64,000 bases of DNA. It comes from Candidatus Krumholzibacteriota bacterium. GTDB taxonomy: Bacteria > Krumholzibacteriota > Krumholzibacteriia > Krumholzibacteriales > WJIX01. Under the pieces are notes generated by a model. It was not told the DNA's origin. It made no database searches and saw only the letters and a program-made list of their open reading frames with translations. The stretch lies in contig JAXHNR010000002.1 of NCBI GenBank assembly GCA_034520215.1, positions 344,642 to 408,641 of the forward strand, read 5' to 3'. Shown here one piece after another: positions 1-34,766 of this stretch. Position 1 is the stretch's first letter, and each line of letters opens with the position of its first letter. The position numbers were made by a program, and so were the translations under genes.

Positions 1-191
1 AGATTTAAGGATTCTAAATGAAATAAAACTGGGGATAAAGAAATAAAAAAGAAAAACTATTAAATATCATAGAATACATAAAGATGCTTGAATTGTTAGC
101 TGCTGGAACATAGTATATTATATATAATAAAAACTTTTATTTATGGGGTCAATCTTTCAAAAGAACAATTTTGTTAATAGTTTGGTGCTAA

Positions 192-821
192 ATGATTGAA
201 ATATTAAAGCAGTTAGGTTTTTCTGCATTAGGCGTAATATTGTTAACATTACTTTTTTTAGTCGGGAAAGAAGTATGGGGTATAGTTAAAGCAAAAAGAT
301 TACAATCGCTTCATGATACTTTGAGCAAAATGCTTGATGAATTAGATCATAGAATCAGCGAATTCTACTTACCTATGTACCAAAGATTGATTACAATGGA
401 AAGTTTGTTTAATGTAACCCGTTCTTGGTTAAATACTAAATCAGAATATCATAATTCTATATTAAATATTAAATCGTCAAATTCAAGAGCCTTAAGAAAT
501 ATTGTAGTAAGACGATTTTTCTTACCATTAAACACGGGCATTGAAAATCTTATACTTAATCAATTGTATCATAAAGTTTCTACGGATGATACCGATTATT
601 CAAAATTACTTTTTCATTATACAATGTGGCGGGCACTGGAGGAAGCTATAATTAATGATGAAATAGAATCATATAGTGCATCAGATTTACTAACTTTTCC
701 TGCTGAGGAGGCAGAAAAACAAAAACGCTGTTGCCGGGAACTTTTAGAAAAACAGAATACCCTTAGAAAGAAAATTATAAAATTAGAGAAAGTACTTTTC
801 CATTGGATTCCGAAAAGTTAA
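192..821 (+). CDS. hypothetical protein with a hydrophobic N-terminal segment; its 3' end overlaps the rSAM gene start by 19 nt, suggesting co-operonic coupling
   Basis: 209-aa ORF. N-terminal LGFSALGVILLTLLFLVG looks like a TM helix. The overlap with the downstream rSAM gene suggests translational coupling. No recognisable catalytic motif. Confidence 0.35.
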   Translation: MIEILKQLGFSALGVILLTLLFLVGKEVWGIVKAKRLQSLHDTLSKMLDELDHRISEFYLPMYQRLITMESLFNVTRSWLNTKSEYHNSILNIKSSNSRALRNIVVRRFFLPLNTGIENLILNQLYHKVSTDDTDYSKLLFHYTMWRALEEAIINDEIESYSASDLLTFPAEEAEKQKRCCRELLEKQNTLRKKIIKLEKVLFHWIPKS

Positions 822-2119
822 AAACCTCTGTATATATTGGGACTATACAATTATCTAATCATGCTTCATTAATATGGTCTGGGTTGACGGGTTATATCGG
901 TGTAGTTTCACCAAATATTGCTCGTATGATTATCAACGAGTCTTTTGATACAATCCCTAATAAATACTTAGTTACACTAATTAAAAATGGGGTATTAGTA
1001 AAAGAGAACATCAATGAAAATCAGTTATTAAAAGAAATCGTGCTTGCAGATGCATTACAGCAAAAAAGAAAATCTGCTCCTAATATGACAATATTCCTTT
1101 CTTATCAATGCAATTGTAAATGTATATATTGCTATCAAAAAAACAAAAATATCCCTGCATTTATAGATAAAGTCACAATAGACAAATCTATAAATTATGC
1201 CAAATTAAATTATAAGGATAATAGGCTTTTAAAAATTCATCTATTTGGTGGTGAACCGTTACTTGATATAGATTTGCTTCATTATATTGTCAAGGCATTT
1301 GAAAAAGCAAAAAATGAATGCAATTGGGATAAGATATTATATGAAATTACAACTAATGGAACTTTATGGTCAAAAAACATTGAACGGATTTTTTCAAAAG
1401 AAAATCTTTACAAAGTGCAGGTTTCTTTTGATGGTCTTAGAAATAATCATAATCTTTTACGACCCTTGAGTAGAGATGGAAAATCTTCTTTCGACATCCT
1501 GTGGAATAATTTAACTGAAATATCTGATAGAACCCAGAAATTGATTTGCAGATTAAATGTATGCGAAGAAAATAAAGAAGACATAATACCTTTAGCACAG
1601 CGAATTATAAATCTGCTTGGTTCTAGTAATCTAGATATTTATTTGTCGCATTTACGTTTTGAAAATACAAAAGAATTTAATACTATTTCAGGTCATGAAT
1701 ATTCAAATATTTTGTATGACTTTTTCTCATGGTATTATTCTGAATTTTTGCGAGCACACCCATTTCTTGTGCCCAAGAAACGTTATTTATCATGTTACGC
1801 AGCATTTAGAATACCGAAGTGGATCTCAACTAATGGAGAGTTATTTCAATGTCAGCACCAAGCTGAATTAGGTGTGCCACAAACAATTAATTTGGACAGC
1901 TTCTTGGAAAATCCTCAACATAGCATAGATTTTCAAACTTTTGATGATTTTTTGAGCTTAGATAATATTATGCTTGACAAATGCATTGGTTGCAAATACT
2001 ATACTTTTTGTGGGGGAATATGTCCAGCAGGGATATTATCCAATGATATCGAAAACCCTTCATGTGATACATGGGAAATGCGATTATCATTATATGGGGA
2101 ACAAGTTTTATTAAAATAG
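803..2119 (+). CDS. radical SAM enzyme with C-terminal SPASM-type auxiliary cluster domain (peptide/RiPP maturase-like)
   Basis: CNCKCIYC matches the CxxxCxxC radical-SAM motif near residue 100. A GGEPLL-like glycine-rich SAM-binding region is present (FGGEPLL). C-terminal Cys cluster CIGCKYYTFCGGICPAG is typical of SPASM domains. Confidence 0.75.
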   Translation: MDSEKLKTSVYIGTIQLSNHASLIWSGLTGYIGVVSPNIARMIINESFDTIPNKYLVTLIKNGVLVKENINENQLLKEIVLADALQQKRKSAPNMTIFLSYQCNCKCIYCYQKNKNIPAFIDKVTIDKSINYAKLNYKDNRLLKIHLFGGEPLLDIDLLHYIVKAFEKAKNECNWDKILYEITTNGTLWSKNIERIFSKENLYKVQVSFDGLRNNHNLLRPLSRDGKSSFDILWNNLTEISDRTQKLICRLNVCEENKEDIIPLAQRIINLLGSSNLDIYLSHLRFENTKEFNTISGHEYSNILYDFFSWYYSEFLRAHPFLVPKKRYLSCYAAFRIPKWISTNGELFQCQHQAELGVPQTINLDSFLENPQHSIDFQTFDDFLSLDNIMLDKCIGCKYYTFCGGICPAGILSNDIENPSCDTWEMRLSLYGEQVLLK

Positions 2120-2128
2120 GAGGCGGAG

Positions 2129-2284
2129 ATGAAAATTAGAACAGTGAAAAAAGGATGGAATGTTGAGGCCGTTGATCCTGTTAATATAGCAAAACGAACA
2201 GTAAGAGAAATGGATTTTAACTGTGGAGATTATGATTCGGGTAAATTGAGTGACCAAAATTGTGGTCTAGAAGACCGAGTCTAG
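2129..2284 (+). CDS. candidate 51-aa RiPP precursor peptide (below the 60-aa ORF cutoff, so absent from the supplied track)
   Basis: ATG at 2129 lies 9 nt after the rSAM stop and is preceded by GGAGGCGGAG. Translation: MKIRTVKKGWNVEAVDPVNIAKRTVREMDFNCGDYDSGKLSDQNCGLEDRV. The C-terminal half repeats an NCG motif around two Cys residues. Confidence 0.4.
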   Translation: MKIRTVKKGWNVEAVDPVNIAKRTVREMDFNCGDYDSGKLSDQNCGLEDRV

Positions 2285-2934
2285 TGGAAGATTGATCTTT
2301 TTCATAAATATTTATATTTATTCATCAACTAAAAACTAATACAAAAGGGATCAACAGTAAACATCTCAGCTTAAATTGCTGTCTATTACTTAAGACTTTT
2401 ATATAATTTGAATGTGATTTTAGTTACACATTATCTTTAATTGTAATTTTATTAAATATAATGGTTAAGAATCGCTTTGTTATTTATAATGGCTTGTTGC
2501 TTACGGGGGGAACAACACCATTCTCAGCCTTGAGATCTATAATCTCTTTGTGAAGTTAATTTCATATAATATGATTTTAATATTTAATTCTGGATATAAT
2601 ATTCAGAGCATTATAAATATCATTGACTTTAGATGTTTGACATTCCTACAAAATTAATCCTTTTTTTATTGGAAGGGGAATTGAATATAGAATAAATATT
2701 AGGTGTAGTTTCGCTCTTCGTATAACACTTATGAGGCCTCCCACTGTCAAGGCAAAAAGTTACCCAATAACGAGCGGTTAAATCTCCAGTTTTTTTATCA
2801 TAGGTCCATATCCCAACTTAATTTCTGATTTGGCCGCCGGGAAGTCCCTGCGGCCAAAAATTTATACAGGTTCACAGTTCAAAAATTAACTGGGGAAACT
2901 TTAAGCTTCACACGACCTAGAAACACATTGGTTT

Positions 2935-3000
2935 CTGATCAGCGACACTCAAAATTCCCGCTAACGACAATTATAATTACCGGTTTAAAGGGGATTTTGA
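2935..3000 (+). repeat. IS21-family (type 1) left-end-like multi-repeat
   Basis: cgacactcaaaattcccgctaacgacaattataattaccgg resembles the left terminus of the complete IS at 34667 (gtctagcgacaattatttttcccgtctggcgacaattagaattcccgg). Confidence 0.35.
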
Positions 3001-3049
3001 TAAACTATCCGCCCAAAATGGGTAAGGAACGTTTTGAAGATGGCACTTG

Positions 3050-3268
3050 CAAGTCCGATGAGAACAAAAATCGTTGTAAACTTATCTCATCCATACCATC
3101 GTCAAGAGGCCAGCTCAGGCCTTTATCAGAGGCGCGGCTCAGATACTCATAGACCGTACTCTTATCTACAGAACAACTTTTTGCTATTTGCCTGACGCTG
3201 AGCTCAACCTCATTCTTTAACCTTAGTATTTCTTTTATTTTGCGCATTGATAACCTCTTTGCTGGCAT
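3050..3268 (-). pseudogene. istA: IS21-family transposase IstA, N-terminal HTH fragment (truncated after about 70 aa)
   Basis: MRKIKEILRLK...LSVRQIAKSCSVDKSTVYEYL...GLSWPLDD is the conserved IstA N-terminal helix-turn-helix region. The reading frame breaks after RFLFSSD. Confidence 0.7.
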
Positions 3269-3379
3269 TTGTACCTCCCGTTTAATTATCTACAAAGGGT
3301 ATAGATTACTATTTTTCTGGTTATCCAGCGCCGCCATTTATCTCTTGTCGCTATTGATTATCAAACCTTTGATCAGATG

Positions 3380-3445
3380 TCCGGAATCAATCGGAATCAC
3401 TGTCCGGCTTGCACCGGAATATACACCGTTAATTTCTTGTTGTTA
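3380..3445. repeat. IS21-family (type 2) terminal repeat block
   Basis: Several ccggaat motifs (gtccggaatcaatcggaatcactgtccggcttgcaccggaatatacac). The caccggaatatacac terminus is the same as at 21852-21866. Confidence 0.4.
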
Positions 3446-4740
3446 GCGCTGGCGATTCTCCCCCAATAATTCAAAAGAATAAAAAATTATGATATACGAA
3501 CTTATCGGCAAGGATTCGTATAGAAATCGGTAGGGTTTTAATTTTAGTGAGCTTCGAAATCATAGATTCATGTGGTTACAAGATGTCTTATAGTTCAGTG
3601 ACGTTTTAGCTATCAATCTTACCTTTTAGGCTATTTTGAACCTATATAAAAACAAAATTTATTCATTTAAACACCCAAATATTTCATTTCAAAGATAATC
3701 GGAAAAATTCGTAAATATTCAAAATAAGCAATAAAAGCATTGAAATGTAGTAATACCACCAGATGTCTTTTTGTTTCAATAACTCAGCCACTGTTGTCAG
3801 AGTTTTTTTATAAAATGACCTAATCTATAAGAATATAGAGGACAGTCTGTTGATGAACAGAATCTGATCGCCTTATAACTTCCAGCTGCACAATTTAAAC
3901 ATTTTGATCGTATAGCTTTCCATAACATTTTTTTTGGTACTTTTACTTTTCCCATTTAATAGCCTCCTTACGGTTTTACCAAGTGTGCAAGGCTTGTTGT
4001 ATTATGAAAAAAATACTAATTGGTTACCGGTTCGGCGATCAGGCAATTTCTAACCTATCTCAGTCAGCGACCCCATTTTTTATCTTGATTCTCCATCCGG
4101 TTCTTAGTTTCCCATAGGACTCTGAATATCAATCTGTCACTTTGTATGGTACATTTCGGCCGTCCTTTTGTTTTTGAAATCGCAAGGATTTTGAGCGCTG
4201 TTTCGTTAATACCTTTCGCTTTCACTTTTCTTCTTGCCCCATTGTACCAATAATCCGGCTTTAACAATTTATTGCTTTTTCAGCAGAGCCAAAATAGTGA
4301 TAACCCAGAGATGCATTTGATTTTTTTCTTCACCAATTCATTATTACCGATTGATATGAGTTGACAATTCAGGAAATAAAAAAATCGCATAAAGAGGGGA
4401 ATTGCATATTTTTACGTCATGTTTCAAATTAAATAATGTAGTTCGGGATAATAGGTTGGGATTATATTTTTTATCATAAAACAATAAATTTTTACTGCGC
4501 AGATTAATTCCCGCTTTGGCTTCAAGTGGATATCTCCCATTTTAACATGATAAAATGTGATAACAGGCTTTTTCCCCATGTTAAAATATTTTAGTTTTAA
4601 GCGTATCCCAAGCTCAAGAAAATTATTCTTGCCCACAATTCAGAAGATGTTTGACAGTAACTGCCACTAACTGTAAAGTGAATAACTATTGTAATCCATT
4701 TAGAAGAGACTTTTATTCCGAAGCTTTAGAGGTGTACCTG

Positions 4741-4920
4741 ATGAATAGAACCCCTGGCGATATTCTGACCATCGAAGAGCTATCCGCGTACCTGAAAATT
4801 TCTAAATCTACGCTCTATAAGCTTGTTCGGGAAGACAAGATTCCGTCACACAAGGTAGGACGGCACTGGCGTTTCCGGAAGGAGACAATCGATAGATGGT
4901 TGGATGAGAAGCGAATTTAA
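4741..4920 (+). CDS. small helix-turn-helix DNA-binding protein (excisionase/MerR-like HTH_17 type), possible regulator of the downstream BREX operon
   Basis: LTIEELSAYLKISKSTLYKLVREDKIPSHKVGRHWRFRKETIDRWL is the classic excisionase-family HTH. The start was moved to the internal ATG at 4741 (MNRTPGD...). Confidence 0.5.
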   Translation: MNRTPGDILTIEELSAYLKISKSTLYKLVREDKIPSHKVGRHWRFRKETIDRWLDEKRI

Positions 4921-4946
4921 GAACCTGATAGAAAGAAAGAACAATA

Positions 4947-5423
4947 ATGGCAGAGCCGCTCACAGATAAGATTATGAATAAAATCAAAAAAACAAATGCG
5001 TTATATTACCGGCTGATGTTGGTTGTTGCTCCAGCGGGATCGGGAAAAACTACTACTCTTCAAAATGTACAAGAACATGTTGGCGCTCCAGTATTTAACA
5101 TCAATCTTGAATTGTCACAACAGATGCTTGACATGACTGAGCGCCAGCGAGCGTTGCAGCTTTCACGACTAATGAGAGATATTATAAAGGATACAGCTGG
5201 TGAACTTGTTTTGTTTGACAACATAGAGATTTTATTTAATGTGTCACTAAAGCAGGATCCTCTGAAAATTCTTCAGGGAATTTCTCGTAACAAGACAGTA
5301 GTTGCATCATGGAATGGCTACATTGACGGCGACAACTTGATATATGCTGAACCAAACCATCCGGAATACAGACGCTATAAAATCCGTGATTTTCTGGTGG
5401 TGAGTCCGGAGGTTACGCCATGA
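4947..5423 (+). CDS. brxF: small P-loop NTPase, BrxF-like (BREX type 3 accessory ATPase)
   Basis: Walker A VVAPAGSGKTTTL. About 158 aa. Sits immediately upstream of the BrxC-like gene, as in type 3 BREX. Confidence 0.45.
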   Translation: MAEPLTDKIMNKIKKTNALYYRLMLVVAPAGSGKTTTLQNVQEHVGAPVFNINLELSQQMLDMTERQRALQLSRLMRDIIKDTAGELVLFDNIEILFNVSLKQDPLKILQGISRNKTVVASWNGYIDGDNLIYAEPNHPEYRRYKIRDFLVVSPEVTP

Positions 5424-5457
5424 ATTTGGCTGAGAAAATTACAGGGAGGTATATGGA

Positions 5458-8400
5458 ATGAAATATGGTGATCTAATTCAGTTTGAGCCTATCGAGTCCG
5501 TAGTTCAGTTGCGGGATGCTGATGGTGCAGTTGCCGCACGGCAGCTTGTAAGTACCTATGTTATTTCTGATGAAATGGCTGATAAATTTTCCAATATTGT
5601 GATTCCTCAACTTCAGTTTGAAAAACCAATTGACAATAAAGGACTGCTTGTAGTAGGTAATTACGGAGCCGGTAAATCACACCTAATGTCGGTAATTTCC
5701 GCACTTGCCGAGAACCCTGATCTCGCCTCCAGTATAAACGATGCGAAGGTTGCAGCTGCTGCCTCAAGGATTAGTGGAAAATTTAAGGTTGTACGAACCG
5801 AGATAGGGGCTACCACCATGTCTCTGCGTGACATCATTGTAGCCGAGCTCGAAGAACATTTGGGGGAGATGGATATTAATTATAATTTTCCATCTGCAGA
5901 CGATGTAGTTAACAACAAGAGTTCCTTTGAGGAGATGATGGCTGCATTTCACCAGAAGTATCCAGATAACGGTTTGCTCCTGGTGGTTGACGAGCTGCTC
6001 GACTATCTGCGTACACGCAAAGACCAGGAACTCATTCTGGACTTAAATTTTCTCCGTGAAATCGGTGAGGTCTGCAAGGATCTGCGGTTCCGCTTTATAG
6101 CCGGTGTGCAGGAAGCCATATTCGACAGTCCCCGTTTTTCCTTCGTATCCGACAGTATTCGCCGTGTAAAGGATCGTTTCGAACAGATTCTCATCGCCAG
6201 TAAGGATGTTAAGTTTGTAGTAGCAGAACGACTTCTCAAGAAAACTGCGGAGCAGCAAAATAAAATTCAGGAGTATCTCACACCTTATGCAAAATTATAC
6301 GGGCATATGAATGAACGCATGAACGAGTTCGTTCGGTTGTTCCCCGTACATCCTGACTACATCGATACATTTGAACGTGTAACTTCGGTGGAAAAACGTC
6401 AAGTGTTAAAGACCCTGTCTATGGCGATGAAAAAACGTCTAAGCGATGATATTCCGAAAGATAGGCCTGGTCTTATTGCCTACGATACCTATTGGAACAG
6501 GCTATGTGAAAACCCTTCGTTTCGTTCCGTGCCCGACATCAAGGCTGTTATCGACTGCAGCCGGGTGCTGGAGTCTCGTATAGAGCAGGCTTTCACACGC
6601 CCGCCCTACAAGCCCATGGCGATTCGGCTTATCCATGCACTATCTGTGCATCGGCTTACTACTGGCGATATTCATGCTACTCTCGGGGCTACACCCAAGG
6701 AACTGCGGGATGCGCTCTGTCTTTATCAGCCTGAGATTGAGGATTTGGGTGGTGATCCGGCCGATGATCTGCTTTCTCATGTAGAAACAGTTCTGCGGGA
6801 AATTCATAAGACAGTAAGCGGACAGTTTATCTCCGTTAACCCTGCCAACCAGCAATTCTATCTTGATCTTAAGAAAACCGATGACTTCGATGCCCTGATT
6901 GAAAAACGGGCCGAAAGTCTCGATATATCCCAGCTCGATCGCTATTACTATGCAGCCCTGAGAATTGTTATGGAGTGTGCAGATCGGACTTATGTTACCG
7001 GCTACAAAATATGGCAGCACGAACTGGAATGGCTGGAATGTAAAGCATCCCGCCAAGGGTATCTCTTCTTTGGAGCGCCCAACGAGCGTTCTACCGCCGT
7101 TCCACCGCGTGATTTCTATATCTATTTCATCCAGCCCTTTGAAACGCCGAAGTTTAAGGATAAAAAAAAAGCAGATGAAGTATTTCTGCATTTGAAAAAC
7201 CCGGGCGATGAGTTCCGTACCACACTCAGCAATTACGCTGCAGCGCTCGATCTTGCATCCACTTCTTCAGGGCATGCCAAATCTACCTATGAATCTAAAT
7301 CATCGAATTTCGTGCGCGATCTGGTGCAGTGGCTGCAGAAGCATATGACAGACGCATTTGAAGTGACCTATCAGGGACGCAGCAAAACCATCACTGAGTG
7401 GAACAAAGGCAAATCTATACGCGAACTTTCTGGTATCGCCTCACACGAGCGGCTCAACTTCCGTGATTTAATAAACACAGTGGCGGGCGTATGCCTCGCC
7501 CCGAATTTTAAGGAACAGGCGCCTGAGTATCCGCATTTTTCAGTTCTCATTACCAGCGACAACAGGGCACAAGCTGCTCAGGATGCACTCCGTTTCATAG
7601 CGGGTCAAAAAGCCACAAAACAGGGTACGGCTGTTCTTGACGCATTGGAGCTTCTTGATGGTGAACGTCTCGATCCCTATAAATCAAAGTATGTCAAGTA
7701 TATCCTCGGGTTGCTCAAGAAGAAGGGTCGTGGTCAGGTAATCAATCGTTCGGAATTGATCCAGGATGTATTTAGTGTAGAATACCTCGCCCCACAGACC
7801 CTGAGGCTCGAACCGGAGTGGGCTGTCGTAATTCTAGCCGTACTGGTTTATACCGGCGATTTGGTGTTGGTTATCCCGGGCAAAAAGTTTGATGCAACGG
7901 AGCTTCCTAAACTCGCCGGAACCAAAGTGGAGGATCTGGCTCAGTTCAAACACATCAAGCAACCAAAGGATTGGAATTTACCAGCGTTAAAGACATTGTT
8001 CGAACTACTTGATCTTACACCCGGTATGGCCCGGCTGATCTCACAGGGGAAAGGGGAACCAGTACAGCAGCTTCAGAAAGCAATTACGCAAAGGGTAGAG
8101 AAACTGGTTCGTATCAGACAGAATTTGCAGGATGGTATACCGTTCTGGGGAAGCAAGTTGTTTGAAGAAAAGGAGTCACAAAAAATTTTAACCCGGCTGG
8201 ATAAAACGAAGGATTTTCTGGAATCCATGCAGGCTTATTCCTCTCCGGGCAAGCTTAAGAATTTTCGCTACGATACAAAAGAAGTCAAAAACCACCGGGA
8301 TGGAATTAAAACCCTAAAAGAGATCGAATCGCTTCAGGAATTGGTAAAGGACTTGGGGGGCACTGCTTTCTATCTGTCAACAGCTGAAGCGGTCTTACCA

Positions 8401-9186
8401 TCTGATTATGAGTGGACAGACAAGATAAAAACTGCCAGGAAGGATGTTTTAGAAAAAATTATCGATCCGAAAAAGCGCGATGCAACGAATTTTCGCCAGA
8501 ATATGATGCGCAAACTCACCAAACTAAAGAAGGAATATCATAAAATATACCTGACAATGCACACCAAGGCACGGCTGGGGGTGAATTACGATAAACGCAA
8601 AACTCGCCTGACGAAGGACGAACGGCTCAAAGTATTGCAGAAACTATCGACTATTGATCTGATGCCGCGTCAGCATCTGAGCGATTTCCAGAACCGACTT
8701 GCAGGTCTGAAGAGTTGTTTTGCTTTTACAGAGCAGGACCTCGATGTTTCTCCAGTTTGTCCGCACTGCGACTACAGGCCTGGAGAAGAAATACCAGCGG
8801 TACCTGCCGAAAACTTGATCGACGAACTTGATGATGTGCTCGATAAACTTGTTAATGACTGGATTCGAACGCTTCTTAACAACATGGAGGATCCCACTAC
8901 AAAGGAACATTTGGAACTGCTTAAGCCCAAACAAAAGAAATTGGTAAAAGGTTTTATCAAAAGCAGGGAGCTGCCGGAGGATATGGATCAGGTTTTCATT
9001 AATGCGCTAAGGGAAGTACTCTCAGGATTGGTGAAGGTGTCGGTAAAAACAGCTGATATACGAGAAGCGCTCCTGGTAGGAGGTTCTCCCGCCACACTGC
9101 AAGAGATGAAAAAACGGTTTGAGCACTACATCGACGAGCTTTCCAAGGGAAAGGAACCCGGCAAGGTGCGGGTTGTATTGGAGTAG
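5458..9186 (+). CDS. brxC: BREX BrxC/PglY large P-loop ATPase
   Basis: 1242 aa. N-terminal Walker [13 protein letters not shown]. Size and position fit BrxC, with PglZ and a methyltransferase in the same operon. Confidence 0.7.
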
Positions 9187-9197
9187 GGATTTATTAT

Positions 9198-10364
9198 ATG
9201 AAAAAAAAATCAAAGAAATCAATAGAATCTGAAGGTAACCTTTTTAGTCGTGTTGTAACTATTTTGGAGCAGGCGCGAACAAATGTTATTCGCACAGTTA
9301 ATAACGAAATGGTGCTTGCATACTGGCAAATCGGACGAGAGATTGTCCAGTCAGTGCAGAGCGGTGATAAACGTGCTGGATATGGAAAGCAAGTTATTAA
9401 AGAGCTTTCTAAAGAGTTGAATAAAAAATACGGCAAGGGATTCTCTACAACAAATTTATGGTATTTTAGACAGTTCTATCTGGTGTATTCAGATCGGGAA
9501 CCCAGGATTCGCCACAAGGCGTGTGGAGAATTGAATTCTGGAGAAAAACTCCACAAGGCTTGTGGAGTTTCAAATGATTTAAGTATGGTTGTTGAAAAAT
9601 GCGAAGATATCAAAGGATTTTCCCCTCTCTTAAGCTGGTCGCATTATCGTACATTAAGTAAAGTTGAGCAAAAGAATGAACGCCTCTTTTACGAGATTGA
9701 GGCCGAAAAAGAAGGTTGGAGCGTTCCTGCCCTGCAACGCCAAATAGACTCCTTCCTTTTCCCTCGGCTTTTGAAAAGTAGGGATAAAGACGGAGTTATG
9801 GAGTTGGTAGAAAAAGGACAATTAATAAAAACTCCGAGTGACAGCATAAAAGATCCTTATATCCTTGATTTTCTTGGTCTGCCTGATTTTAAGCAAATAC
9901 ACGAATCAAAACTGGAAACTGCGATTATTGACAATCTACAATCATTCCTTCTGGAATTAGGTAAAGGATTTGCATTTGTTGCCCGGCAAAAACGTCTCCA
10001 GTACGAGGATGAATATTTCTATATTGATCTTGTTTTTTATAACTGCATTTTGAAGTGCTATCTTCTAATTGACCTGAAGATAGGTAAGTTGACACATCAG
10101 GATATCGGTCAGATGGACAGCTATATCCGGATGTACGATGATAAATATTTTACAGAGGGTGATAATCCATCAATAGGTCTTATTCTTTGCGCAAAGAAAA
10201 ACGAAACCATCGCCCGCTATTCGGTACTAAAAGACAGCAAACAGCTCTTCGCATCCAAATATATGCTCTGTCTGCCTACAGAGGAAGAGCTGCAGCAGGA
10301 ATTGGAGCGGGAACGGATACTAATTGAAAAGCTTCAATCCGAAGGAAAAGATGATCACGAATGA
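9198..10364 (+). CDS. DUF1016/YhcG-family PD-(D/E)xK nuclease
   Basis: C-terminal LELGKGFAFVARQKRL...YIDLVFYN...LLIDLKIGKL, with the D...D-x-K layout typical of the YhcG family. Inserted between brxC and the methyltransferase. Confidence 0.6.
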   Translation: MKKKSKKSIESEGNLFSRVVTILEQARTNVIRTVNNEMVLAYWQIGREIVQSVQSGDKRAGYGKQVIKELSKELNKKYGKGFSTTNLWYFRQFYLVYSDREPRIRHKACGELNSGEKLHKACGVSNDLSMVVEKCEDIKGFSPLLSWSHYRTLSKVEQKNERLFYEIEAEKEGWSVPALQRQIDSFLFPRLLKSRDKDGVMELVEKGQLIKTPSDSIKDPYILDFLGLPDFKQIHESKLETAIIDNLQSFLLELGKGFAFVARQKRLQYEDEYFYIDLVFYNCILKCYLLIDLKIGKLTHQDIGQMDSYIRMYDDKYFTEGDNPSIGLILCAKKNETIARYSVLKDSKQLFASKYMLCLPTEEELQQELERERILIEKLQSEGKDDHE

Positions 10365-10433
10365 AAAGGTATAAATTATCCACGACTGTTATTTGTGTTT
10401 ATTCGAATCCATTAATGGCCGAAGGGGTTATTT

Positions 10434-13379
10434 GTGATGAGTAGATCAAAAGAAAACAATAAACAGAAACCATTATTTAAGACAAAAATTGTCCCCGGCA
10501 AACCAGGTTCACAGAATCTATTTGAAGAGGAATTTATCCGTGATGAGGGACTCGTGGAATGTCTCGGTATGACGTTTGAAAATGATAAAAAGCGCCGGCA
10601 GCATTTTCTGGAAATATTAAAAGAAAAACTTAAAGACCCTGAATTTCGCAAAATCGAGGGTTTTCCACTCGGAGAGGATGAAGATATTCTCAATCTGTCC
10701 GATCCCCCTTACTACACTGCTTGTCCGAACCCGTGGATCGGTGGTTTTATAAAGCTATGGGAAAGTCAGAAACCAGAGAGGGACAACAAAAAATATCACA
10801 GAGAACCATTTGTCGCTGATGTTAGTGAAGGTAAAAACGATCCAATATACAACGCCCATTCTTATCATACAAAGGTGCCTCACAAAGCGATCATGAGGTA
10901 TATTCTTCACTACACCGCCCCTGGAGACATTGTCTTTGATGGATTTTGCGGTACGGGTATGACGGGTGTCGCGGCGCAGATGTGTGGAAACAAAGATGCG
11001 GTTGAATCTCTGGGTGTTACCAAAAAATCTCCTGAAAAGAAATACAGAGTTGAAAAGGATGGAACAATATCAGAAAAAAAGGTGAACGAAGGGGGGAAAA
11101 CCGTATGGACACCATTTTCCAAAATTGGAGCAAGGAAAGCGGTTCTAAATGACCTTTCCCCAGCGGCAACCTTTATTGCGTATAATTATAACACCCCCGT
11201 TGATGTTGTTGAGTTTGAAAGGGAAGCAAAACGAATCTTAAAGGAAGTAGAAGAAGAATGCGGCTGGATGTATGAGACTGCTCATGAAGATGGACAAAAG
11301 GGCAGGATTAATTACACGGTCTGGTCGGATGTCTTCGTCTGCCCGGAATGTTCCGGGGAAATAATCTTTTCGGAAGCGGCGGTGGATAAAGAGGCCGGGA
11401 AGGTACATAAAGAGTTTCCATGCCCGCACTGCCAGGTTCAACTTACCAAAAGGAAAATGGATAGGGCATGGGTAACAAAGTACGATTCCGCGCTAAACAA
11501 ATCCATACGACAGGCCAAACAGGTTCCGGTACTGATTAACTATTCTCTTCCTGTCCCCGACAGGAAAAGGCCAAAGCGGTTTAAAAAAACACCTGAAGAA
11601 TCTGATCTAGCGCTTATTGAAAGAATAGAGAATAGTGAGATTCCATATTGGTTTCCTGCTGACCGTATGATGGAAGGTGAGGAAACAAGGCGCAACGATA
11701 GATTTGGCATTACCCATGTGCATCATTTTTATACGAAAAGGAATTTGTGGGTGTTGGGGGCGGTGCTGAATATGTGTTCACTTAAAATAAGATTATTATT
11801 TCAATCTCTTTCGCAATTCGTTCAACAAGCTGACAATAATCCTTTGTTATTATTTTTATTCGGAAGTGCTTTACCAAAACTAACTATTATGAATAGGTAC
11901 ATGCCACAACATGGGGGAAGAGCACTTGTTGGCCCCATGGCAAATACACTTTATGTGCCCCCAGTATGTGTTGAGAAGAATGTGATCGATCAATTTCGGT
12001 TTCAATTTAATAAAATCGCCAAAGCATTAAATTCACTTAAGAGCAACTTGGTTTTAACACAAGCTGCGCAACAGATAAATGTGCCTGATAATTCAATTGA
12101 TTATTTGTTTCTTGATCCTCCATTTGGGGCAAATATAATGTACTCAGAGTTAAGCTTTATCAGGGAAGCTTGGTTAAAGGTTTTTACAAATTCTAAACCA
12201 GAAGCAATTGAAAATAAATCGCAAAAGAAAACAATTGATGTGTATAGAATACTGATGGCCGAGTGTTTCAAGGAAACATATAGAATGCTAAAACCAGGAC
12301 ATTGGATGACGGTTGAATTTTCAAACACTAAATCATCTGTGTGGAATAGCATACAACGTGCTCTTTCTGAAGCAGGTTTTATTGTGGCATCTGTTGCCGC
12401 TCTGGACAAAACAAGAGGGGGGCTACATGCTATGATTGGACCTACAGCGGTCAAACAAGATCTCGTAATCTCCGCCTACAAACCCAACGGTGGGTTTGTA
12501 GAACGATTCTTGAAAGAAGCATCAACCGAAGAAGGTGTATGGGATTTTATTCGTACTCATCTCGGCTATCTACCCGTAATAAAGAAACAGGGGAATGAAC
12601 TTGTTCCTGTCCCTGAACGAGATCCGCGCATACTCTTCGATCAGGTTGTTGCTTTCTATGTCAGCAAAGGTTATCGGGTTCCAGTATCTAGCCCGGAGTT
12701 TCAGAAGGGATTAGCTGAGCGTTTTTCTCTTCGCGACGGTATGTACTTCCTGCCTGAGCAGACAGCGGAATACGACAAGAAACGGATGAACGCAAAAGAA
12801 ATTATTCAACTGAACCTCTTTGTATCAGATGAGGCAACCTCTATTCAGTGGCTTAAACAGATACTTAATAAAAAGCCGTTGACCTTCCAAGATATAAATC
12901 CACAGTTTCTGAAAGAAATTTCCGGTTGGGATAAGCATGAAAAAGCCCTTGAGCTTTCTGAAATTCTGGAACAGAACTTTTTGCGTTACGACGGCAAGAG
13001 CAATGTGCCCAGTCAGATTCACAGCTATCTCTCCTCAAATTTTAAAGAGCTGCGCAACCTTGAAAAGGATGATCCTGCGCTTATAGCCAAGGCCAAAGAC
13101 CGCTGGTATGTACCTGATCCTCGGAAGGCTAGTGATCTTGAACAACTCCGAACGAGGGTTTTGATGAGGGAATTTAAAGAATATGTTGAGTACAAGAAGA
13201 AACGAATACGTGTTTTTCGTATGGAAGCTGTCCGCGCTGGCTTTAAGAAAGCATGGCAGGAGCGAGACTACACCACAATAATTGATGTGGCACAAAAGAT
13301 TCCGGACAAGATTATTCAGGAAGATCCCAAGCTCCTTATGTGGTACGATCAGGCTGTAACGAGAACAGGAGAGGAATAA
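10434..13379 (+). CDS. pglX: N6-adenine/N4-cytosine DNA methyltransferase, BREX PglXI-like
   Basis: SDPPYYTACPNPW and LFLDPPFGANIMY (DPPY/F motif IV). VFDGFCGTGMTGVAA is the FxGxG SAM-binding motif. A Cys4 zinc ribbon (CPECSG...CPHCQ) is present. 981 aa. Confidence 0.7.
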   Translation: MMSRSKENNKQKPLFKTKIVPGKPGSQNLFEEEFIRDEGLVECLGMTFENDKKRRQHFLEILKEKLKDPEFRKIEGFPLGEDEDILNLSDPPYYTACPNPWIGGFIKLWESQKPERDNKKYHREPFVADVSEGKNDPIYNAHSYHTKVPHKAIMRYILHYTAPGDIVFDGFCGTGMTGVAAQMCGNKDAVESLGVTKKSPEKKYRVEKDGTISEKKVNEGGKTVWTPFSKIGARKAVLNDLSPAATFIAYNYNTPVDVVEFEREAKRILKEVEEECGWMYETAHEDGQKGRINYTVWSDVFVCPECSGEIIFSEAAVDKEAGKVHKEFPCPHCQVQLTKRKMDRAWVTKYDSALNKSIRQAKQVPVLINYSLPVPDRKRPKRFKKTPEESDLALIERIENSEIPYWFPADRMMEGEETRRNDRFGITHVHHFYTKRNLWVLGAVLNMCSLKIRLLFQSLSQFVQQADNNPLLLFLFGSALPKLTIMNRYMPQHGGRALVGPMANTLYVPPVCVEKNVIDQFRFQFNKIAKALNSLKSNLVLTQAAQQINVPDNSIDYLFLDPPFGANIMYSELSFIREAWLKVFTNSKPEAIENKSQKKTIDVYRILMAECFKETYRMLKPGHWMTVEFSNTKSSVWNSIQRALSEAGFIVASVAALDKTRGGLHAMIGPTAVKQDLVISAYKPNGGFVERFLKEASTEEGVWDFIRTHLGYLPVIKKQGNELVPVPERDPRILFDQVVAFYVSKGYRVPVSSPEFQKGLAERFSLRDGMYFLPEQTAEYDKKRMNAKEIIQLNLFVSDEATSIQWLKQILNKKPLTFQDINPQFLKEISGWDKHEKALELSEILEQNFLRYDGKSNVPSQIHSYLSSNFKELRNLEKDDPALIAKAKDRWYVPDPRKASDLEQLRTRVLMREFKEYVEYKKKRIRVFRMEAVRAGFKKAWQERDYTTIIDVAQKIPDKIIQEDPKLLMWYDQAVTRTGEE

Positions 13380-13381
13380 TT

Positions 13382-14674
13382 ATGGCGAAAATAGAAGGAA
13401 TCAGAATTCAAAATTACGGTGTGTTAAAAGATATAATACTGGGAAAGTTATGGAACTTACAAAATGCCAAACCACTGACACCCATGACTGCGGTTATTGG
13501 AAAAAACGGGGTAGGTAAGAGTTCTTTGTTCGATGCCTTTGGTTTTCTTGCTGATTGCCTGAAATTGGGAGTTGAAGATGCATGTAATGCCAGGGGGCGG
13601 GGCGGCTTTGAGCGTATTTGTTCTCAAGGGAGTAATGGCCCGATCGAGTTTCAGATATACTACAGGCAGCATGGTAATGCCAGACCTATTACATATGAAA
13701 TTGCAATTGACAAAGATAAGGCTGGCCGATCCTACGTAAAAAAGGAACGGCTCAGACAGAGGCGCAAGGGACAGAGCTATGGATGGCCTTTTTCGTTTCT
13801 TGTGTTGAATGAAGGAAAAGGAGTCGTATGGAAAGGCGAAGAACATGGACAGCAGATTGATGAAGGTAAAGTGGATTTTGACTTGTTCGGGTTGATGAAG
13901 AAAATTGGAGCAACACCACAAAAAGAAGAAAGCCGCGAAACAGAGATTATTGAACTACAAGACAAGCGCAAGCTTGGCATTGCAACCCTTGGGGCACTAA
14001 AACAACATCCCAGGATATCGGCATTTCGCCAGTTTATCGAGGGCTGGTATATGAGTTACTTTACTCCGGATGCTGCTCGCAGTCTTCCATTGGCCGGGCC
14101 ACAAAGGCATTTGAATATCCACGGAGATAATCTCGGTAATGTCGTTCAGTTCATGCAGCGTGATCATCCTAAACGTTTTAATAGTATACTCAATCGCATT
14201 GCTGAAAAAATTCCCGGAATTGACAAAATTGATACCGAAGAGAGTCCGGATAAACGGCTGCTTTTGCGTTTTAATGATAAAGGCTTCGATAGTCCGTTCT
14301 ATGCTCAGCAAATGTCTGATGGTACGCTAAAAGTCTTTGCTTACTTTTTGTTATTGGAGGATCCGACACCCCCGCCTTTTATCTGTATTGAAGAGCCTGA
14401 AAACGGGCTGTATCACAAATTGTTGGAGCCTTTGGCCGCTGAATTCCGTACGCATGCAACGGGCAGAAAAAACTCGCCGCAACTCTTTATTACCACGCAT
14501 CAACCATATTTTGTGGATGCACTAACGCCAGAAGAGACATGGATTCTTGAAAAAGGCTCGGACGGTTTTTCGAGGATACGAAGGGCCAGCGAGGATGCAA
14601 CCGTCAAAGCCATGGTAGATGAAGGATTACCGCTTGGTGGCCTCTGGTACAGTGATTATCTGGATGCGAGGTGA
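13382..14674 (+). CDS. AAA_21 / ABC-type (SMC-like) ATPase, defence-associated
   Basis: Start MAKIEGIRIQNYGVLKDI. Walker A GKNGVGKSSLFDA. C-terminal Walker B-like ICIEEPENGLYH. Start reassigned to the ATG at 13382, which follows GGAGAGGA. Confidence 0.65.
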   Translation: MAKIEGIRIQNYGVLKDIILGKLWNLQNAKPLTPMTAVIGKNGVGKSSLFDAFGFLADCLKLGVEDACNARGRGGFERICSQGSNGPIEFQIYYRQHGNARPITYEIAIDKDKAGRSYVKKERLRQRRKGQSYGWPFSFLVLNEGKGVVWKGEEHGQQIDEGKVDFDLFGLMKKIGATPQKEESRETEIIELQDKRKLGIATLGALKQHPRISAFRQFIEGWYMSYFTPDAARSLPLAGPQRHLNIHGDNLGNVVQFMQRDHPKRFNSILNRIAEKIPGIDKIDTEESPDKRLLLRFNDKGFDSPFYAQQMSDGTLKVFAYFLLLEDPTPPPFICIEEPENGLYHKLLEPLAAEFRTHATGRKNSPQLFITTHQPYFVDALTPEETWILEKGSDGFSRIRRASEDATVKAMVDEGLPLGGLWYSDYLDAR

Positions 14675-14678
14675 GCCA

Positions 14679-15341
14679 ATGCACTTTCAAATACATGTTG
14701 AAGATGCGTCTGGGAAAATCGTGTTGGAATCTATTATGGATAAGATTCTGAGCCCACAGGACCTAAATCACACATATAAAATATATTCTTACAAAGGCAT
14801 TGGGCGTATTCCAAATGACCTAAAAGGAACAATAGATCCACAAAAGCGCATTCTTATGGATAGATTGCCAAAGTTACTAAGAGGGTACGGGAAAAGTTTG
14901 CAGCATAGTTCTGTTTCTGTTGTGGTGTTTGTCGTAGATCTCGATTATAGGGATTGTATAGCATTCAAAGAAGAAATGATTGATGTATTAAATGCCTGCA
15001 ATCCAAAGCCAAAAACGCTATTCAGGATTGCGATAGAGGAAATAGAAGCTTGGTTGTTGGGAGATCGTAATGCTATTAAAACTGCTTACCCTCACGCAAA
15101 AAATCAGGTTTTAAACAGTTATCAGCAAGACAGTATATGTGATACATGGGAGAAACTTGCGGATGCCATATATTCTGGGGGATCGAAAAAAGTTAAAAAA
15201 CAGGGATGGCCCCATACAGGACAGTTAAAATGTCGTTGGGCGAAAAAGATTGCTCCTCATATGGATGTAGAAAATAATCAATCAAAAAGTTTCAGGATTT
15301 TCCGTGATGGAATAAGAAAATTGGCAGGAAGTGTGATCTGA
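14679..15341 (+). CDS. DUF4276-like Toprim/OLD-type partner of the AAA_21 ATPase
   Basis: HFQIHVEDASGKIVLESI (conserved acidic residues), VVFVVDLDYRD and the EEIEAWLL motif. Start reassigned to ATG 14679, 4 nt after the ATPase stop, with GAGGTGAG upstream. Confidence 0.5.
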   Translation: MHFQIHVEDASGKIVLESIMDKILSPQDLNHTYKIYSYKGIGRIPNDLKGTIDPQKRILMDRLPKLLRGYGKSLQHSSVSVVVFVVDLDYRDCIAFKEEMIDVLNACNPKPKTLFRIAIEEIEAWLLGDRNAIKTAYPHAKNQVLNSYQQDSICDTWEKLADAIYSGGSKKVKKQGWPHTGQLKCRWAKKIAPHMDVENNQSKSFRIFRDGIRKLAGSVI

Positions 15342-18136
15342 TGAACGGGAACAAATGGCACTACAGTCTCGATCACGACCAAATCTGCAAGGTTATTGAA
15401 ACCCAGAAGCTTTGGGGCAAAACCACCTGCTGTGTCTGGTTTCCGGTTTCGGACTCGGTGGTGCATGTTTCTGCGGCAGGACTTAAACCGATTGAGGACA
15501 TTGTAACATGTACGCCGGAGCATGTTACCTACATTGCAGCTGCAGCCAGGGTAGCAGAAGCGCTTACTCAGAATGTCCTGCTTTCGCCTGTTGAATCTTC
15601 GGTTATTCCTCTCCCCCATCAGATCAAGACACTGTCCCGGGCGATTTCTGGTGATAGGATACGCTATCTCTTGGCAGACGAGGTTGGGCTCGGAAAGACC
15701 ATCGAAGCTGGTTTGATCATGCGAGAGCTTAAATTGCGCGGTTTGGTTACAAGAACTTTAGTTATTTCACCCAAAGGCCTGCTTACGCAATGGATGGCCG
15801 AAATGCAGACTCATTTTGGAGAGGATTTTCGAATTCTTATTCCAGGTGATTTTTCAACCTATAGGCGTATAACCCGTGAAGAAAATATGTGGAAAAGCCA
15901 TGATCAAATTATCTGTTCCATGGATTCTGTAAAACCGATGGACAAACATCGTGGTTGGACGCAGGAGAGGATCACTGAATACAACAGCGAACGTTTCGAA
16001 GATCTGATTGCTGCCGGCTGGGATCTTATTATCGTGGACGAGGCGCACCGTCTTGGTGGAAGCACAGATCAGATCGCCCGCTTCAAACTTGGCAAGGGAT
16101 TGGCCGCGGCATCTCCCTATCTCTTGATGCTCTCCGCTACACCTCATCAGGGAAAGACCGATGCTTTTCACCGTTTGGTTTCCCTTGTCGATTCTGAGGC
16201 CTTTCCGAATGAAGCCAGTGTCACTAGTGAGAGGGTTCAACCTTACGTTATACGCACCGAGAAACGTCAGGCCATAGACGCAAAGGGAAGGCCGCTCTTT
16301 AAGCCCCGGCGTACGGAACTTGCCCCGATCGCATGGGAAAAACGACATCGGGATCAGGAACTTCTTTATGAAGCTGTTACCGAATATGTAAGGCAGGGTT
16401 ACAATCAGGCTAGAAAGGAAAAGCGAAGCTATATTGGTTTTCTTATGATTCTTATGCAACGTCTAGTAGTCTCAAGTACAGCAGCGATCAGCAGCACTCT
16501 TGAACGAAGACTGGAGGTGTTAAAAGCGCCGCAGGAACAGTTAAATCTGTTCCCGGATTATTCAGAAGAGGATTGGGCGGATATGGATGGAGAGGAACAG
16601 ATCGAAACTCTGCTGATGACCCGTTTGAATGCCATGAAAAATGAGAGAGCTGAGGTAAAATTGCTCCTCGATGTCGCAAGACGCTGCGCACAAGTTGGAC
16701 CGGATGCGAAGACTGAGGCATTACTGGACTGGATCTATCGGTTGCAACAGGAAGAAGGCGATCCGGAGCTAAAGATCCTCGTTTTTACCGAATTTGTATC
16801 TACCCAGAAAATGCTCGAACAATTCTTGAAAGATCGCGGGTTTTCAGTGGTTTGTCTGAATGGTTCACTGAACATGAATGACCGCAAAGATGTCCAGGAA
16901 TCTTTCGCGGAGGATGTGCGAGTTTTGGTTTCTACAGATGCGGGCGGCGAAGGCCTAAACCTACAATTCTGTCATGCTGTGATTAACTACGATATTCCAT
17001 GGAACCCGATGCGGCTTGAACAGCGCATTGGACGAGTAGATCGCATTGGTCAGGGGCATGTTGTACGAGCTGTTAACTTTATTTTTGATAGTTCCGTGGA
17101 GCATCGTGTGCAGGAGGTGCTAGAAGAAAAACTGGCTGTTATCCTCGAAGAGTTTGGTATCGATAAAACCGGTGATGTGCTTGATTCAGCACAAGCAGGA
17201 CAGATTTTCGACGATCTTTATGTGGAAGCCATTCTTCATCCGGAAGACGTGGAATCATCAGTTGATACGGTTGTTTCCCGTATCCATGATCAGATTCTGG
17301 AAGCTAAGAAAAGCTCTTCGGTCCTTGGAAAAGCCGAGGATTTAGACCCCGGTGAAGCAAAACGTCTGATGGTTCATCCGCTTCCCGACTGGGTGGAAAG
17401 TATGACGGTTAATTATCTGCATGCAAACGGAGGCAGGGCGGAAAAAAAGCGACGCACGTGGGACCTTGAGTGGCCGGACGGGGAGTTGTTTTCGAACATG
17501 GTTTTTACAAGAAAGGATGCCTTTGATATTCCAACTGCTCACCACTTGACCTTGGAGAATAAAAAAGTTCGCAATTTGGTAATGAAGTTGCCTCGAATGG
17601 TAAGGGGGCAGCCAATACAGTCAGTTAATATTCCGGGGCTTTCCAATGAAATTAAAGGGTTTTGGTCTCTCTGGACAATCACAATTCATGCTGATGACTG
17701 GAAATGGCAGCGGGTATTGGCCATATTTTTGCACGATGACGGCAGAATTCTTAAGCCTACAGCACGCCACATCTGGAATAAATTACTGGCAGTTTCTCCG
17801 GAGATTGGCAGACATCTTAAAAGCGATTCCGCTCATGACGCATTTGATCGAGTAATGGAAGCAGCAGAAAAGGATGGAAAGGCAATTTATGATGGAATCG
17901 TTCAAATGCACCGTAAACGCTTAATTCGTGAACGCAGCAAGGGAACATATGCCTTTAATGCAAGGCGAAAGGCCATGGAACAAATTGGATTGCCGCAAGT
18001 TCGAGACCACAGGTTGGGTAAATTGAATCGTGAAGAGGATGAATGGTGTGAGCAATTGGAACGCAGAGCTAAAGTGATTCCCGAAATGGCAGCTCTTCTT
18101 TTGATATACATGGAGGGAACCAATGCGATCAGGTGA
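15341..18136 (+). CDS. brxH: SNF2-family helicase, BrxHII-like
   Basis: Helicase motif I LLADEVGLGKTIEAG, motif II LIIVDEAHRL, motif III LMLSATPHQGK, and a C-terminal helicase domain (QRIGRVDRIGQ). 931 aa. Confidence 0.7.
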   Translation: MNGNKWHYSLDHDQICKVIETQKLWGKTTCCVWFPVSDSVVHVSAAGLKPIEDIVTCTPEHVTYIAAAARVAEALTQNVLLSPVESSVIPLPHQIKTLSRAISGDRIRYLLADEVGLGKTIEAGLIMRELKLRGLVTRTLVISPKGLLTQWMAEMQTHFGEDFRILIPGDFSTYRRITREENMWKSHDQIICSMDSVKPMDKHRGWTQERITEYNSERFEDLIAAGWDLIIVDEAHRLGGSTDQIARFKLGKGLAAASPYLLMLSATPHQGKTDAFHRLVSLVDSEAFPNEASVTSERVQPYVIRTEKRQAIDAKGRPLFKPRRTELAPIAWEKRHRDQELLYEAVTEYVRQGYNQARKEKRSYIGFLMILMQRLVVSSTAAISSTLERRLEVLKAPQEQLNLFPDYSEEDWADMDGEEQIETLLMTRLNAMKNERAEVKLLLDVARRCAQVGPDAKTEALLDWIYRLQQEEGDPELKILVFTEFVSTQKMLEQFLKDRGFSVVCLNGSLNMNDRKDVQESFAEDVRVLVSTDAGGEGLNLQFCHAVINYDIPWNPMRLEQRIGRVDRIGQGHVVRAVNFIFDSSVEHRVQEVLEEKLAVILEEFGIDKTGDVLDSAQAGQIFDDLYVEAILHPEDVESSVDTVVSRIHDQILEAKKSSSVLGKAEDLDPGEAKRLMVHPLPDWVESMTVNYLHANGGRAEKKRRTWDLEWPDGELFSNMVFTRKDAFDIPTAHHLTLENKKVRNLVMKLPRMVRGQPIQSVNIPGLSNEIKGFWSLWTITIHADDWKWQRVLAIFLHDDGRILKPTARHIWNKLLAVSPEIGRHLKSDSAHDAFDRVMEAAEKDGKAIYDGIVQMHRKRLIRERSKGTYAFNARRKAMEQIGLPQVRDHRLGKLNREEDEWCEQLERRAKVIPEMAALLLIYMEGTNAIR

Positions 18137-23654: not shown

Positions 23655-23657
23655 TTA

Positions 23658-24833: not shown

Positions 24834-24863
24834 GTACAAAATGGTTGTAAAATTTTAAAAAGA

Positions 24864-26120: not shown

Positions 26121-26121
26121 T

Positions 26122-34564: not shown

Positions 34565-34766
34565 AAAGCTTGCAAAGAATGAGCAAAACATTGCTGCTCG
34601 TTTTACTTCTCGGTTTGAGCTGGGAAACAGATAATTCTTTCTCCCGATCTTATGGAAAGCTTTCAGTGTCTAGCGACAATTATTTTTCCCGTCTGGCGAC
34701 AATTAGAATTCCCGGTTATTAAGGGAATTGATAGACTGTCCAAGTCATGAGAATAAGGAGGCTTGG

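Follow-up and report, generated by a model that had tools for sequence, protein, structure and literature searches.

Layout of the cassette

The window analyzed here, a 64-kb stretch from a Candidatus Krumholzibacteriota metagenome-assembled genome (MAG), carries near its start a cassette of three genes that encode a membrane protein (TM209), a radical S-adenosylmethionine (rSAM) enzyme with a SPASM region, and a short putative precursor peptide. Sequence comparison indicates that this segment, window 192-2284, forms an operon of three genes that is self-contained, horizontally mobile and very rare. We examined it as a candidate source of a ribosomally made, post-translationally modified peptide (RiPP). 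Its genes and motifs are as follows, with lengths in amino acids (aa) or nucleotides (nt).

192..821 (+): TM209 gene, first of the cassette, for a 209-aa membrane-anchored helical-bundle protein
803..2119 (+): rSAM/SPASM peptide maturase gene, 438 aa, starting with TTG; 19-nt overlap with the TM209 gene
1109..1132 (+): codons of the radical-SAM [4Fe-4S] motif, C103-X3-C107-X2-C110, from a motif scan
1793..2065 (+): SPASM cysteines C331-X13-G345-X4-C350, C394-X2-C397-X5-C403-X3-C407 and C421, from a motif scan
2118..2123 (+): AGGAGG ribosome-binding site (RBS) of the peptide gene; shares bases with the rSAM stop codon and ends 5 nt upstream of the ATG
2129..2284 (+): gene for the 51-aa putative precursor peptide, from the open reading frame (ORF), alignment and codon pattern
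2222..2236 (+): first Cys-X3-Asp motif of the peptide, C32 G D Y D36, predicted site of a first thioether ring
2261..2275 (+): second Cys-X3-Asp motif, C45 G L E D49, predicted site of a second ring, with E48 as an alternative acceptor

The rSAM ORF, the 51-aa ORF, its RBS and the overlapping 209-aa transmembrane (TM) ORF were all found where an earlier note on this DNA had placed them. The rSAM gene ends in a TAG stop codon at 2117-2119, and the peptide ORF begins 9 nt later. At the other end of the rSAM gene, both of its orthologs have ATG where the window has TTG and overlap the preceding gene by the same 19 nt, so we take the TTG at 803 to be the true start. Across window 1-5000, we found no Rfam family and no terminator-like site, and promoter-like sites were not more common there than in shuffled sequence. 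The earlier note had also described the 51-aa ORF as lacking annotation. It is indeed absent from an ORF track of at least 60 aa, but NCBI lists it as the hypothetical protein MDZ7860610.1 (locus tag U5O15_08105), which forms a singleton cluster.

Conservation and mobility of the three genes

By searching about 5.8 billion protein clusters, we recovered only two orthologs of the rSAM enzyme, P0002 (58% identity) and P0003 (43%); the next relative was 26% identical. They are its sole orthologs among some 15 billion public proteins. The corresponding loci, L001 in a Spirochaetota MAG and L003 in a Joint Genome Institute (JGI) metagenome, have an identical gene order of TM209, rSAM and a peptide ORF of 53-56 aa. 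An RBS precedes the peptide start at equivalent positions in both (AGGAGG in L001, GGAGG in L003). The expectation that the peptide ORF would be conserved beside homologous rSAM genes was thus borne out at two of two orthologous loci besides the window, with the RBS retained and with signs of purifying selection.

At the nucleotide level, blastn aligned the window to L001 at 68% identity over 2,123 nt (window 191-2280), a span that runs from the start codon of the first gene to the end of the peptide gene, while the flanks were unrelated. Because similarity is confined to the three genes, we regard them as one conserved mobile unit. The GC content of the cassette (29.5%) is also well below the 41-47% of the adjacent bacteriophage exclusion (BREX) genes. 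A genome scan for further cassettes returned the L001 genome alone, and the cassette was not found in viral contigs, phage records or plasmid records. Scanning metagenomes with the rSAM alignment yielded 55 loci, all of them distant (23-35% identity), and neither TM209 nor this peptide occurred in any of the 55.

The 51-aa peptide

The three peptides align with 16 invariant columns, and the window peptide is 53% and 39% identical to its orthologs from L001 and L003, respectively. Length differences among them come in whole codons. Between the window and L001, the peptide genes differ at 25 third codon positions, compared to 16 and 14 at the other two, and the C45-G-L-E-D-x-V block is invariant in protein while carrying synonymous codon changes. 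Together, the third-position bias, the synonymous changes and the whole-codon insertions or deletions indicate purifying selection on the peptide at the protein level.

The conserved feature of the peptide is a Cys-X3-Asp motif that occurs twice, C32-D36 and C45-D49, and all five residues of the second motif are invariant. This differs somewhat from the earlier description of two NCG-type Cys motifs. Both NCG motifs are present in the window peptide, but NCG is not conserved, as the orthologs have DCE/DCN and DCG/GCG at these places. In the N-terminal half, G9, W10 and P17 are conserved, as they would be in a leader. The putative leader comprises about residues 1-28 and the putative core about residues 29-51. 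The core is acidic, with six Asp or Glu residues vs. two Lys or Arg over residues 28-51. The three peptides share no cleavage motif, whether double-glycine or of another type.

The radical-SAM/SPASM enzyme

The enzyme contains a radical-SAM domain (PF04055, 4.5e-11, 43.6 bits vs. a cut-off of 29.5). In the motif scan, it also shows the full seven-Cys SPASM motif, CX9-15GX4C-gap-CX2CX5CX3C-gap-C (PMC6231123), although the Pfam SPASM model gave no match at E<=1. The CX3CX2C residues and all seven SPASM cysteines plus the glycine are invariant across the three orthologs. This complete SPASM motif, together with the two invariant CX3D motifs of the peptide, supports the layout of a SPASM-dependent RiPP pair that had been proposed from the window alone, and it fits a ranthipeptide in particular.

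In hidden Markov model (HMM) searches of both proteins against maturase and precursor families, as the earlier note had suggested, the best matches of the rSAM enzyme were peptide maturases, all below their cut-offs, and the peptide matched no precursor family. The NCBIfam matches of the enzyme that bear most on its identity are listed here.

CefB "Cys-every-fifth" maturase, NF038107: 128.8 bits, 2.3e-37, cut-off 600; best NCBIfam match
PapB ranthipeptide maturase, NF047865: 115.1 bits, 3.8e-33, cut-off 340; second-best match
Geopeptide maturase: 103 bits, 1.8e-29, cut-off 400
SCIFF maturase ScfB/CteB, TIGR03974: 64.1 bits, cut-off 425
Anaerobic sulfatase maturase, TIGR03942: 57.6 bits, 1.1e-15, cut-off 349; twelfth, below eleven peptide-maturase families

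Maturases of the nif11, CcpM, Clo7bot and SCIFF types were likewise among the matches. Because every NCBIfam match lies far under its curated cut-off, the enzyme belongs to no named family. A grouping with anaerobic sulfatase maturases, which the earlier note had named as an outcome that would count against a peptide substrate, did not materialize, given that this family scored 57.6 bits and CefB, PapB and the geopeptide maturase 128.8, 115.1 and 103, respectively. The nearest solved structure by sequence is that of CteB, the SCIFF thioether maturase (5wgg, 4.6e-11). The CefB profile aligns to residues 7-409 of the enzyme and the PapB profile to residues 95-409. In an AlphaFold2 (AF2) model of low confidence (4-sequence alignment; mean predicted local distance difference test score, pLDDT, 52.7), residues 1-70 form four strands and then two helices. 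No Pfam match to PqqD was found on the enzyme.

Short Cys-containing peptides also lie directly downstream of distant rSAM relatives in metagenomes (23-35% identity). Two sets of relatives deserve separate description. The enzyme P0004 (26% identity; L004 3528-5033) is followed by its own, unrelated 57-aa Cys-rich peptide (…TCQDCFVDFVSCNPNSQIDDCTINYG) and then by ABC-transporter genes. Judged by its gene content, L004 is a conventional exported RiPP cluster, in contrast to the cassette, which has no exporter. In human-gut metagenomes, rSAM relatives of ~27% identity are followed by peptides of 32-35 aa that end in NCAACVVNNYDPYEKK or NCGACVISSLQPY and that may represent another unnamed RiPP family. 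The genes of these gut peptides lie at the following positions.

L016 5250-5348
L017 9198-9296
L018 8949-9047
L025 2846-2953

TM209 and its relatives

TM209 is the best-conserved gene of the cassette, with 63% protein identity to L001 and 53% to L003, compared to 58% and 43% for the rSAM enzyme. Its single hydrophobic helix spans roughly residues 7-26 and precedes a flank rich in Lys and Arg, and because of this order, its helical bundle is probably cytoplasmic. The AF2 model (pLDDT 89) consists of the TM helix and long helices and resembles generic four-helix bundles only. Two cysteines are present, one of which is conserved among the three orthologs. TM209 matched no family in Pfam, NCBIfam, PADLOC, PDB or BFVD.

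When 1.84 billion representatives were searched exhaustively with HMMER, 28 clusters fell in the TM209 family at E<1e-30, and a further word-index search added at least four relatives. Where the loci were readable (L005, L007, L008, L011 and L012-L014), these relatives, with 30-42% identity and E values of 1e-41 to 1e-57, occurred without an rSAM gene. Instead, an 82-aa protein with the pattern CPxH[IL]S...C...LGDxLEN is encoded downstream in one or two copies, most often from a start codon that overlaps the preceding stop codon; in one case, a DUF397 protein follows. Pfam returned nothing for the 28 family members and the 82-aa partners, and neither did a profile search of the PDB. Longer distant relatives of TM209 carried no Pfam domain fusions. 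The one match among them, to SLATT_1/LapA, was sub-threshold and fell on a TM segment, and we discounted it. The 82-aa partner was also judged not to be homologous to the 51-aa peptide or to the N terminus of the rSAM enzyme (hhalign probabilities of 1.7% and 0.7%).

In one branch of the family, the 82-aa partner is duplicated in tandem, as proteins of 82 aa and 81 aa that share one profile (L012 6008-6549, L013 3152-3693 and L014 840-1381). As far as these loci allow a comparison, TM209 is the constant element of a family of small modules in which the small partner varies, being here a peptide together with its modifying enzyme.

A probable ranthipeptide-like RiPP

We consider it likely that the cassette represents a new and very rare family of ranthipeptide-like RiPPs. 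The pairing of the rSAM enzyme with the peptide is well supported by the sequence data described above. We infer the thioether chemistry from the Cys-X3-Asp motif and from sub-threshold homology, and the relationship of enzyme to substrate, the boundary between leader and core, and the role of TM209 are proposed at the same level. PapB joins the sulfur of Cys to the β-carbon of Asp or the γ-carbon of Glu in CX3D/E motifs, and it accepts peptides with two such motifs (PMC9413430).

In the mechanism that we propose, the 51-aa product of 2129-2284 would be the precursor, and its N-terminal half (G-W-[ND]...P) would serve as a leader that is recognized by the N-terminal domain of the maturase. The SPASM enzyme, by means of its SAM cluster and a pair of auxiliary Fe-S clusters, would then join C32 and C45 to acidic side chains four residues downstream, D36 and D49 or possibly E48. 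The predicted outcome is two small thioether rings within an acidic C-terminal core. Synthesis of TM209 would be translationally coupled to that of the maturase, and a membrane anchor would leave its helical bundle on the cytoplasmic side. As an obligatory third partner, TM209 would most likely bind or respond to the matured peptide.

Several observations weigh against this interpretation. The conserved unit includes no leader peptidase and no exporter, and the peptide matches no known precursor family in Pfam or NCBIfam. The maturase scores far under all family cut-offs (129 vs. 600 bits for CefB, 115 vs. 340 for PapB), and for this reason, the type of cross-link cannot be read from homology. 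A RiPP recognition element fold in the N-terminal 90 residues of the enzyme is suggested by a low-confidence model only. With three loci in total, statistics on co-occurrence are thin. Moreover, relatives of TM209 pair with an 82-aa protein and have no rSAM gene, so the function of TM209 is not intrinsically tied to RiPP chemistry.

We also considered other modifications of the peptide. The YhhB model matches the rSAM enzyme at 54 bits, and a Tyr or Phe cyclophane at F30 or Y35 is one alternative; an α-carbon sactionine in place of the Cys-Asp thioether is another. Formylglycine of the sulfatase type was rejected because the sulfatase maturation motif, C/S-x-P/A-x-R, is absent from the peptide.

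Genomic neighborhood

Defense or mobile genes adjoin the cassette in three of three loci, which, with so small a sample, is no more than suggestive. Directly upstream of window position 1 lies a divergent trio of genes at L015 713-2361 (-), which looks from its domain matches like a TIR-plus-caspase defense module abutting the cassette.

L015 trio (-): TIR-like/ThsB-like protein, 123 aa; weak Pfam match
L015 trio (-): caspase-like Peptidase_C14 protein, 327 aa; PADLOC caspase match at 1.2e-18
L015 trio (-): 93-aa protein

Downstream, a complete type 3 BREX system occupies window 4947-21620 (+), with two candidate defense modules nested in it.

4947-5423 (+): BrxF
5458-9186 (+): BrxC/PglY
9198-10364: PDC-S02, a YhcG/DUF1016 PD-(D/E)xK nuclease, candidate defense module
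10434-13379 (+): PglXI
13340-15341: HEC-01A/B, an AAA_21 ATPase and a DUF4276 protein, candidate defense module
15341-18136 (+): BrxHI-like helicase
18123-18836: CBS-like ORF, 237 aa, within BREX
18814-20841 (+): PglZ
20838-21620 (+): BrxA

Most of the 2.3-kb gap at 2285-4650 that separates the cassette from BREX has no coding content. Within it are an 87-aa fragment at 3005-3268 (-), which by eye resembles the N terminus of an IS21-type transposase and has no Pfam match, and a 52-aa CxxC...C ORF at 3797-3955 (-). The content of this gap looks like insertion scars. Between the cassette and BREX there is also an HTH_17/excisionase-like gene at 4651-4920 (+).

At the other two loci, the neighbors of L001 are two integrases, group II intron reverse transcriptases and a HATPase/REase_II/SduA-like protein, and those of L003 are Vsr, a restriction endonuclease and a Dcm methylase. 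PADLOC-DB v2 gave no specific defense model for any cassette protein. The rSAM enzyme had a generic pVip match of 40.6 bits (residues 97-218), TM209 had a weak match of 15.8 bits, and the peptide had none. The neighbors of the modules of TM209 with the 82-aa protein lie on short contigs and were uninformative; one module adjoins a restriction-enzyme fragment.

Across the window, GC content swings from 29% to 48%. A second low-GC block at 21942-29880 (+), with a GC content of about 29-32%, encodes a carbamoyltransferase, methyltransferases, glycosyltransferases and a PIG-L deacetylase and is probably a cluster for surface-glycan modification. It includes an unusual adjacent pair, a NadA-like protein with a quinolinate synthase fold (26122-27030) and an unrelated radical-SAM protein (27020-28030). 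A 471-aa ORF at 34728-36143 (+) has a Mu-transposase C-terminal domain, another sign that this 64-kb region is a patchwork of mobile DNA.

Alternative explanations

The cassette could instead be an anti-phage or conflict module in which TM209 is a membrane effector or sensor under the control of its small partner. This partner, an 82-aa protein in most relatives and the rSAM-cross-linked peptide here, would serve as antitoxin, trigger or signal, with damage to the membrane or arrest of growth as the consequence of infection. We regard this as rather unlikely. Recognizable defense genes lie beside all three cassettes, and the cassette is a discrete unit that recurs in different phyla with a GC content of 29.5% next to the 41-47% of BREX. 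The unit has no exporter or protease, and TM209, its most conserved component, is in every case coupled in translation to a small gene that follows it, as in toxin-antitoxin modules. Peptide-processing modules with rSAM-SPASM enzymes have, moreover, been predicted in conflict systems before (PMC7159879). However, the setting is known from three loci, and mobile islands carry RiPP or bacteriocin clusters too (PMC12715929). PADLOC gives the rSAM enzyme a generic match to viperin models alone, the surroundings of the modules with the 82-aa protein are uninformative, and phage, plasmid and viral collections did not yield the cassette. We nevertheless keep a defense function open because the unit is without an exporter or protease, because TM209 is highly conserved and belongs to a family independent of rSAM genes, and because all copies are in defense islands. 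A more specific form of this idea, in which modules built on TM209 form a new two-part class of conflict module and its usual partner has here been replaced by an rSAM-cyclized peptide, seems slightly more doubtful still.

A classical secreted bacteriocin or signaling peptide, with TM209 as its immunity or export protein and with proteases and transporters supplied by the host, appears improbable to us. The layout resembles that of many small RiPP operons, with a co-translated membrane protein upstream, and characterized thioether peptides include antimicrobials (PMC8172795). However, a single-TM protein whose bundle is predicted to be cytoplasmic would be no transporter, and no cleavage motif, peptidase or ABC transporter is conserved across the loci. 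TM209 is also more conserved than the peptide (63% and 53% vs. 53% and 39%), a pattern not usual among immunity proteins, and members of its family are found where there are no RiPP genes. The role in immunity or export that the earlier note had suggested for the membrane protein therefore looks too narrow, given that TM209 is the best-conserved component and that its family is found with an 82-aa protein and no rSAM gene. Hardly credible, in our view, is that the small ORF is not the substrate at all, such that the enzyme acts on TM209, another protein or a small molecule and the 51-aa product is accessory or functionless. SPASM enzymes do include members outside RiPP biosynthesis, such as the anaerobic sulfatase maturase that is weakly matched here, and the link between enzyme and substrate is drawn from adjacency alone. 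Yet the invariant Cys and Asp residues of the peptide are under purifying selection, peptide-maturase families outscore all others, the peptide lacks the C/S-x-P/A-x-R motif of sulfatases, and TM209 offers two cysteines, of which one is conserved.

Significance

Families of uncharacterized rSAM RiPPs are frequent in genome mining. For the cassette, the rSAM/SPASM RiPP class is already known, and what is new is the precursor family, the membrane partner and the setting in defense islands. If the ranthipeptide-like interpretation is correct, the cassette would add a precursor/maturase family of thioether peptides from the uncultured phyla Krumholzibacteriota and Spirochaetota. It would also provide a minimal two-ring substrate that is possibly useful in the enzymology of peptide cyclization.

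An obligatory membrane partner that is better conserved than the peptide, the unrelated small partner of its family elsewhere, and placement next to defense genes at three of three loci suggest that the modified peptide has a role inside the cell, in connection with the membrane. Such a role, if true, would bear on the function of other RiPP pairs without an exporter, such as SCIFF. If the cassette were instead to act in defense, it would be an anti-phage or abortive-infection system with an intracellular RiPP switch. In 2.1 kb, the cassette offers a compact, testable link to membrane and defense biology.

Comparison with known systems

One of the closest known systems is PapB/PapA, the freyrasin system, which like the cassette combines a radical-SAM/SPASM maturase with a precursor that contains Cys-X3-Asp motifs (PMC9413430). 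The two systems differ in that the cassette peptide has two separated CX3D motifs, whereas PapA has six in tandem, and the precursor sequences are unrelated. Additionally, the cassette enzyme has an extra N-terminal domain of ~90 residues that falls outside the PapB profile, and the cassette has TM209 as an obligatory partner. CefB resembles the cassette enzyme over nearly its whole length, with the N-terminal domain included, and its substrate, by family name, has Cys at every fifth residue in the manner of CX3D units. However, at 129 bits vs. a cut-off of 600, the cassette enzyme is not an ortholog of CefB, and the cassette peptide has two Cys that are 13 residues apart.

The SCIFF/CteB system (ScfA/ScfB) shares with the cassette the compact pairing of a maturase and a peptide. 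By contrast, the cassette peptide has two Cys rather than six and matches no NCBIfam precursor model, SCIFF ones included, and SCIFF is without a partner like TM209. As with the cassette, a dedicated exporter is not known for SCIFF, nor is a physiological role.

A computational precedent for the setting comes from the modules of Kaur, Burroughs, Iyer and Aravind (2020), in which a SPASM rSAM enzyme and a short conserved peptide occur at conflict loci (PMC7159879). Those modules belong to VMAP-ternary or AP-ATPase systems and have peptides with FxSxx motifs (PMC7159879), none of which were seen at the cassette. Finally, although the modules of TM209 with the 82-aa protein contain no rSAM gene and their small partner is unrelated to the 51-aa peptide, they share with the cassette a homologous membrane protein whose translation is coupled to that of a small gene behind it.

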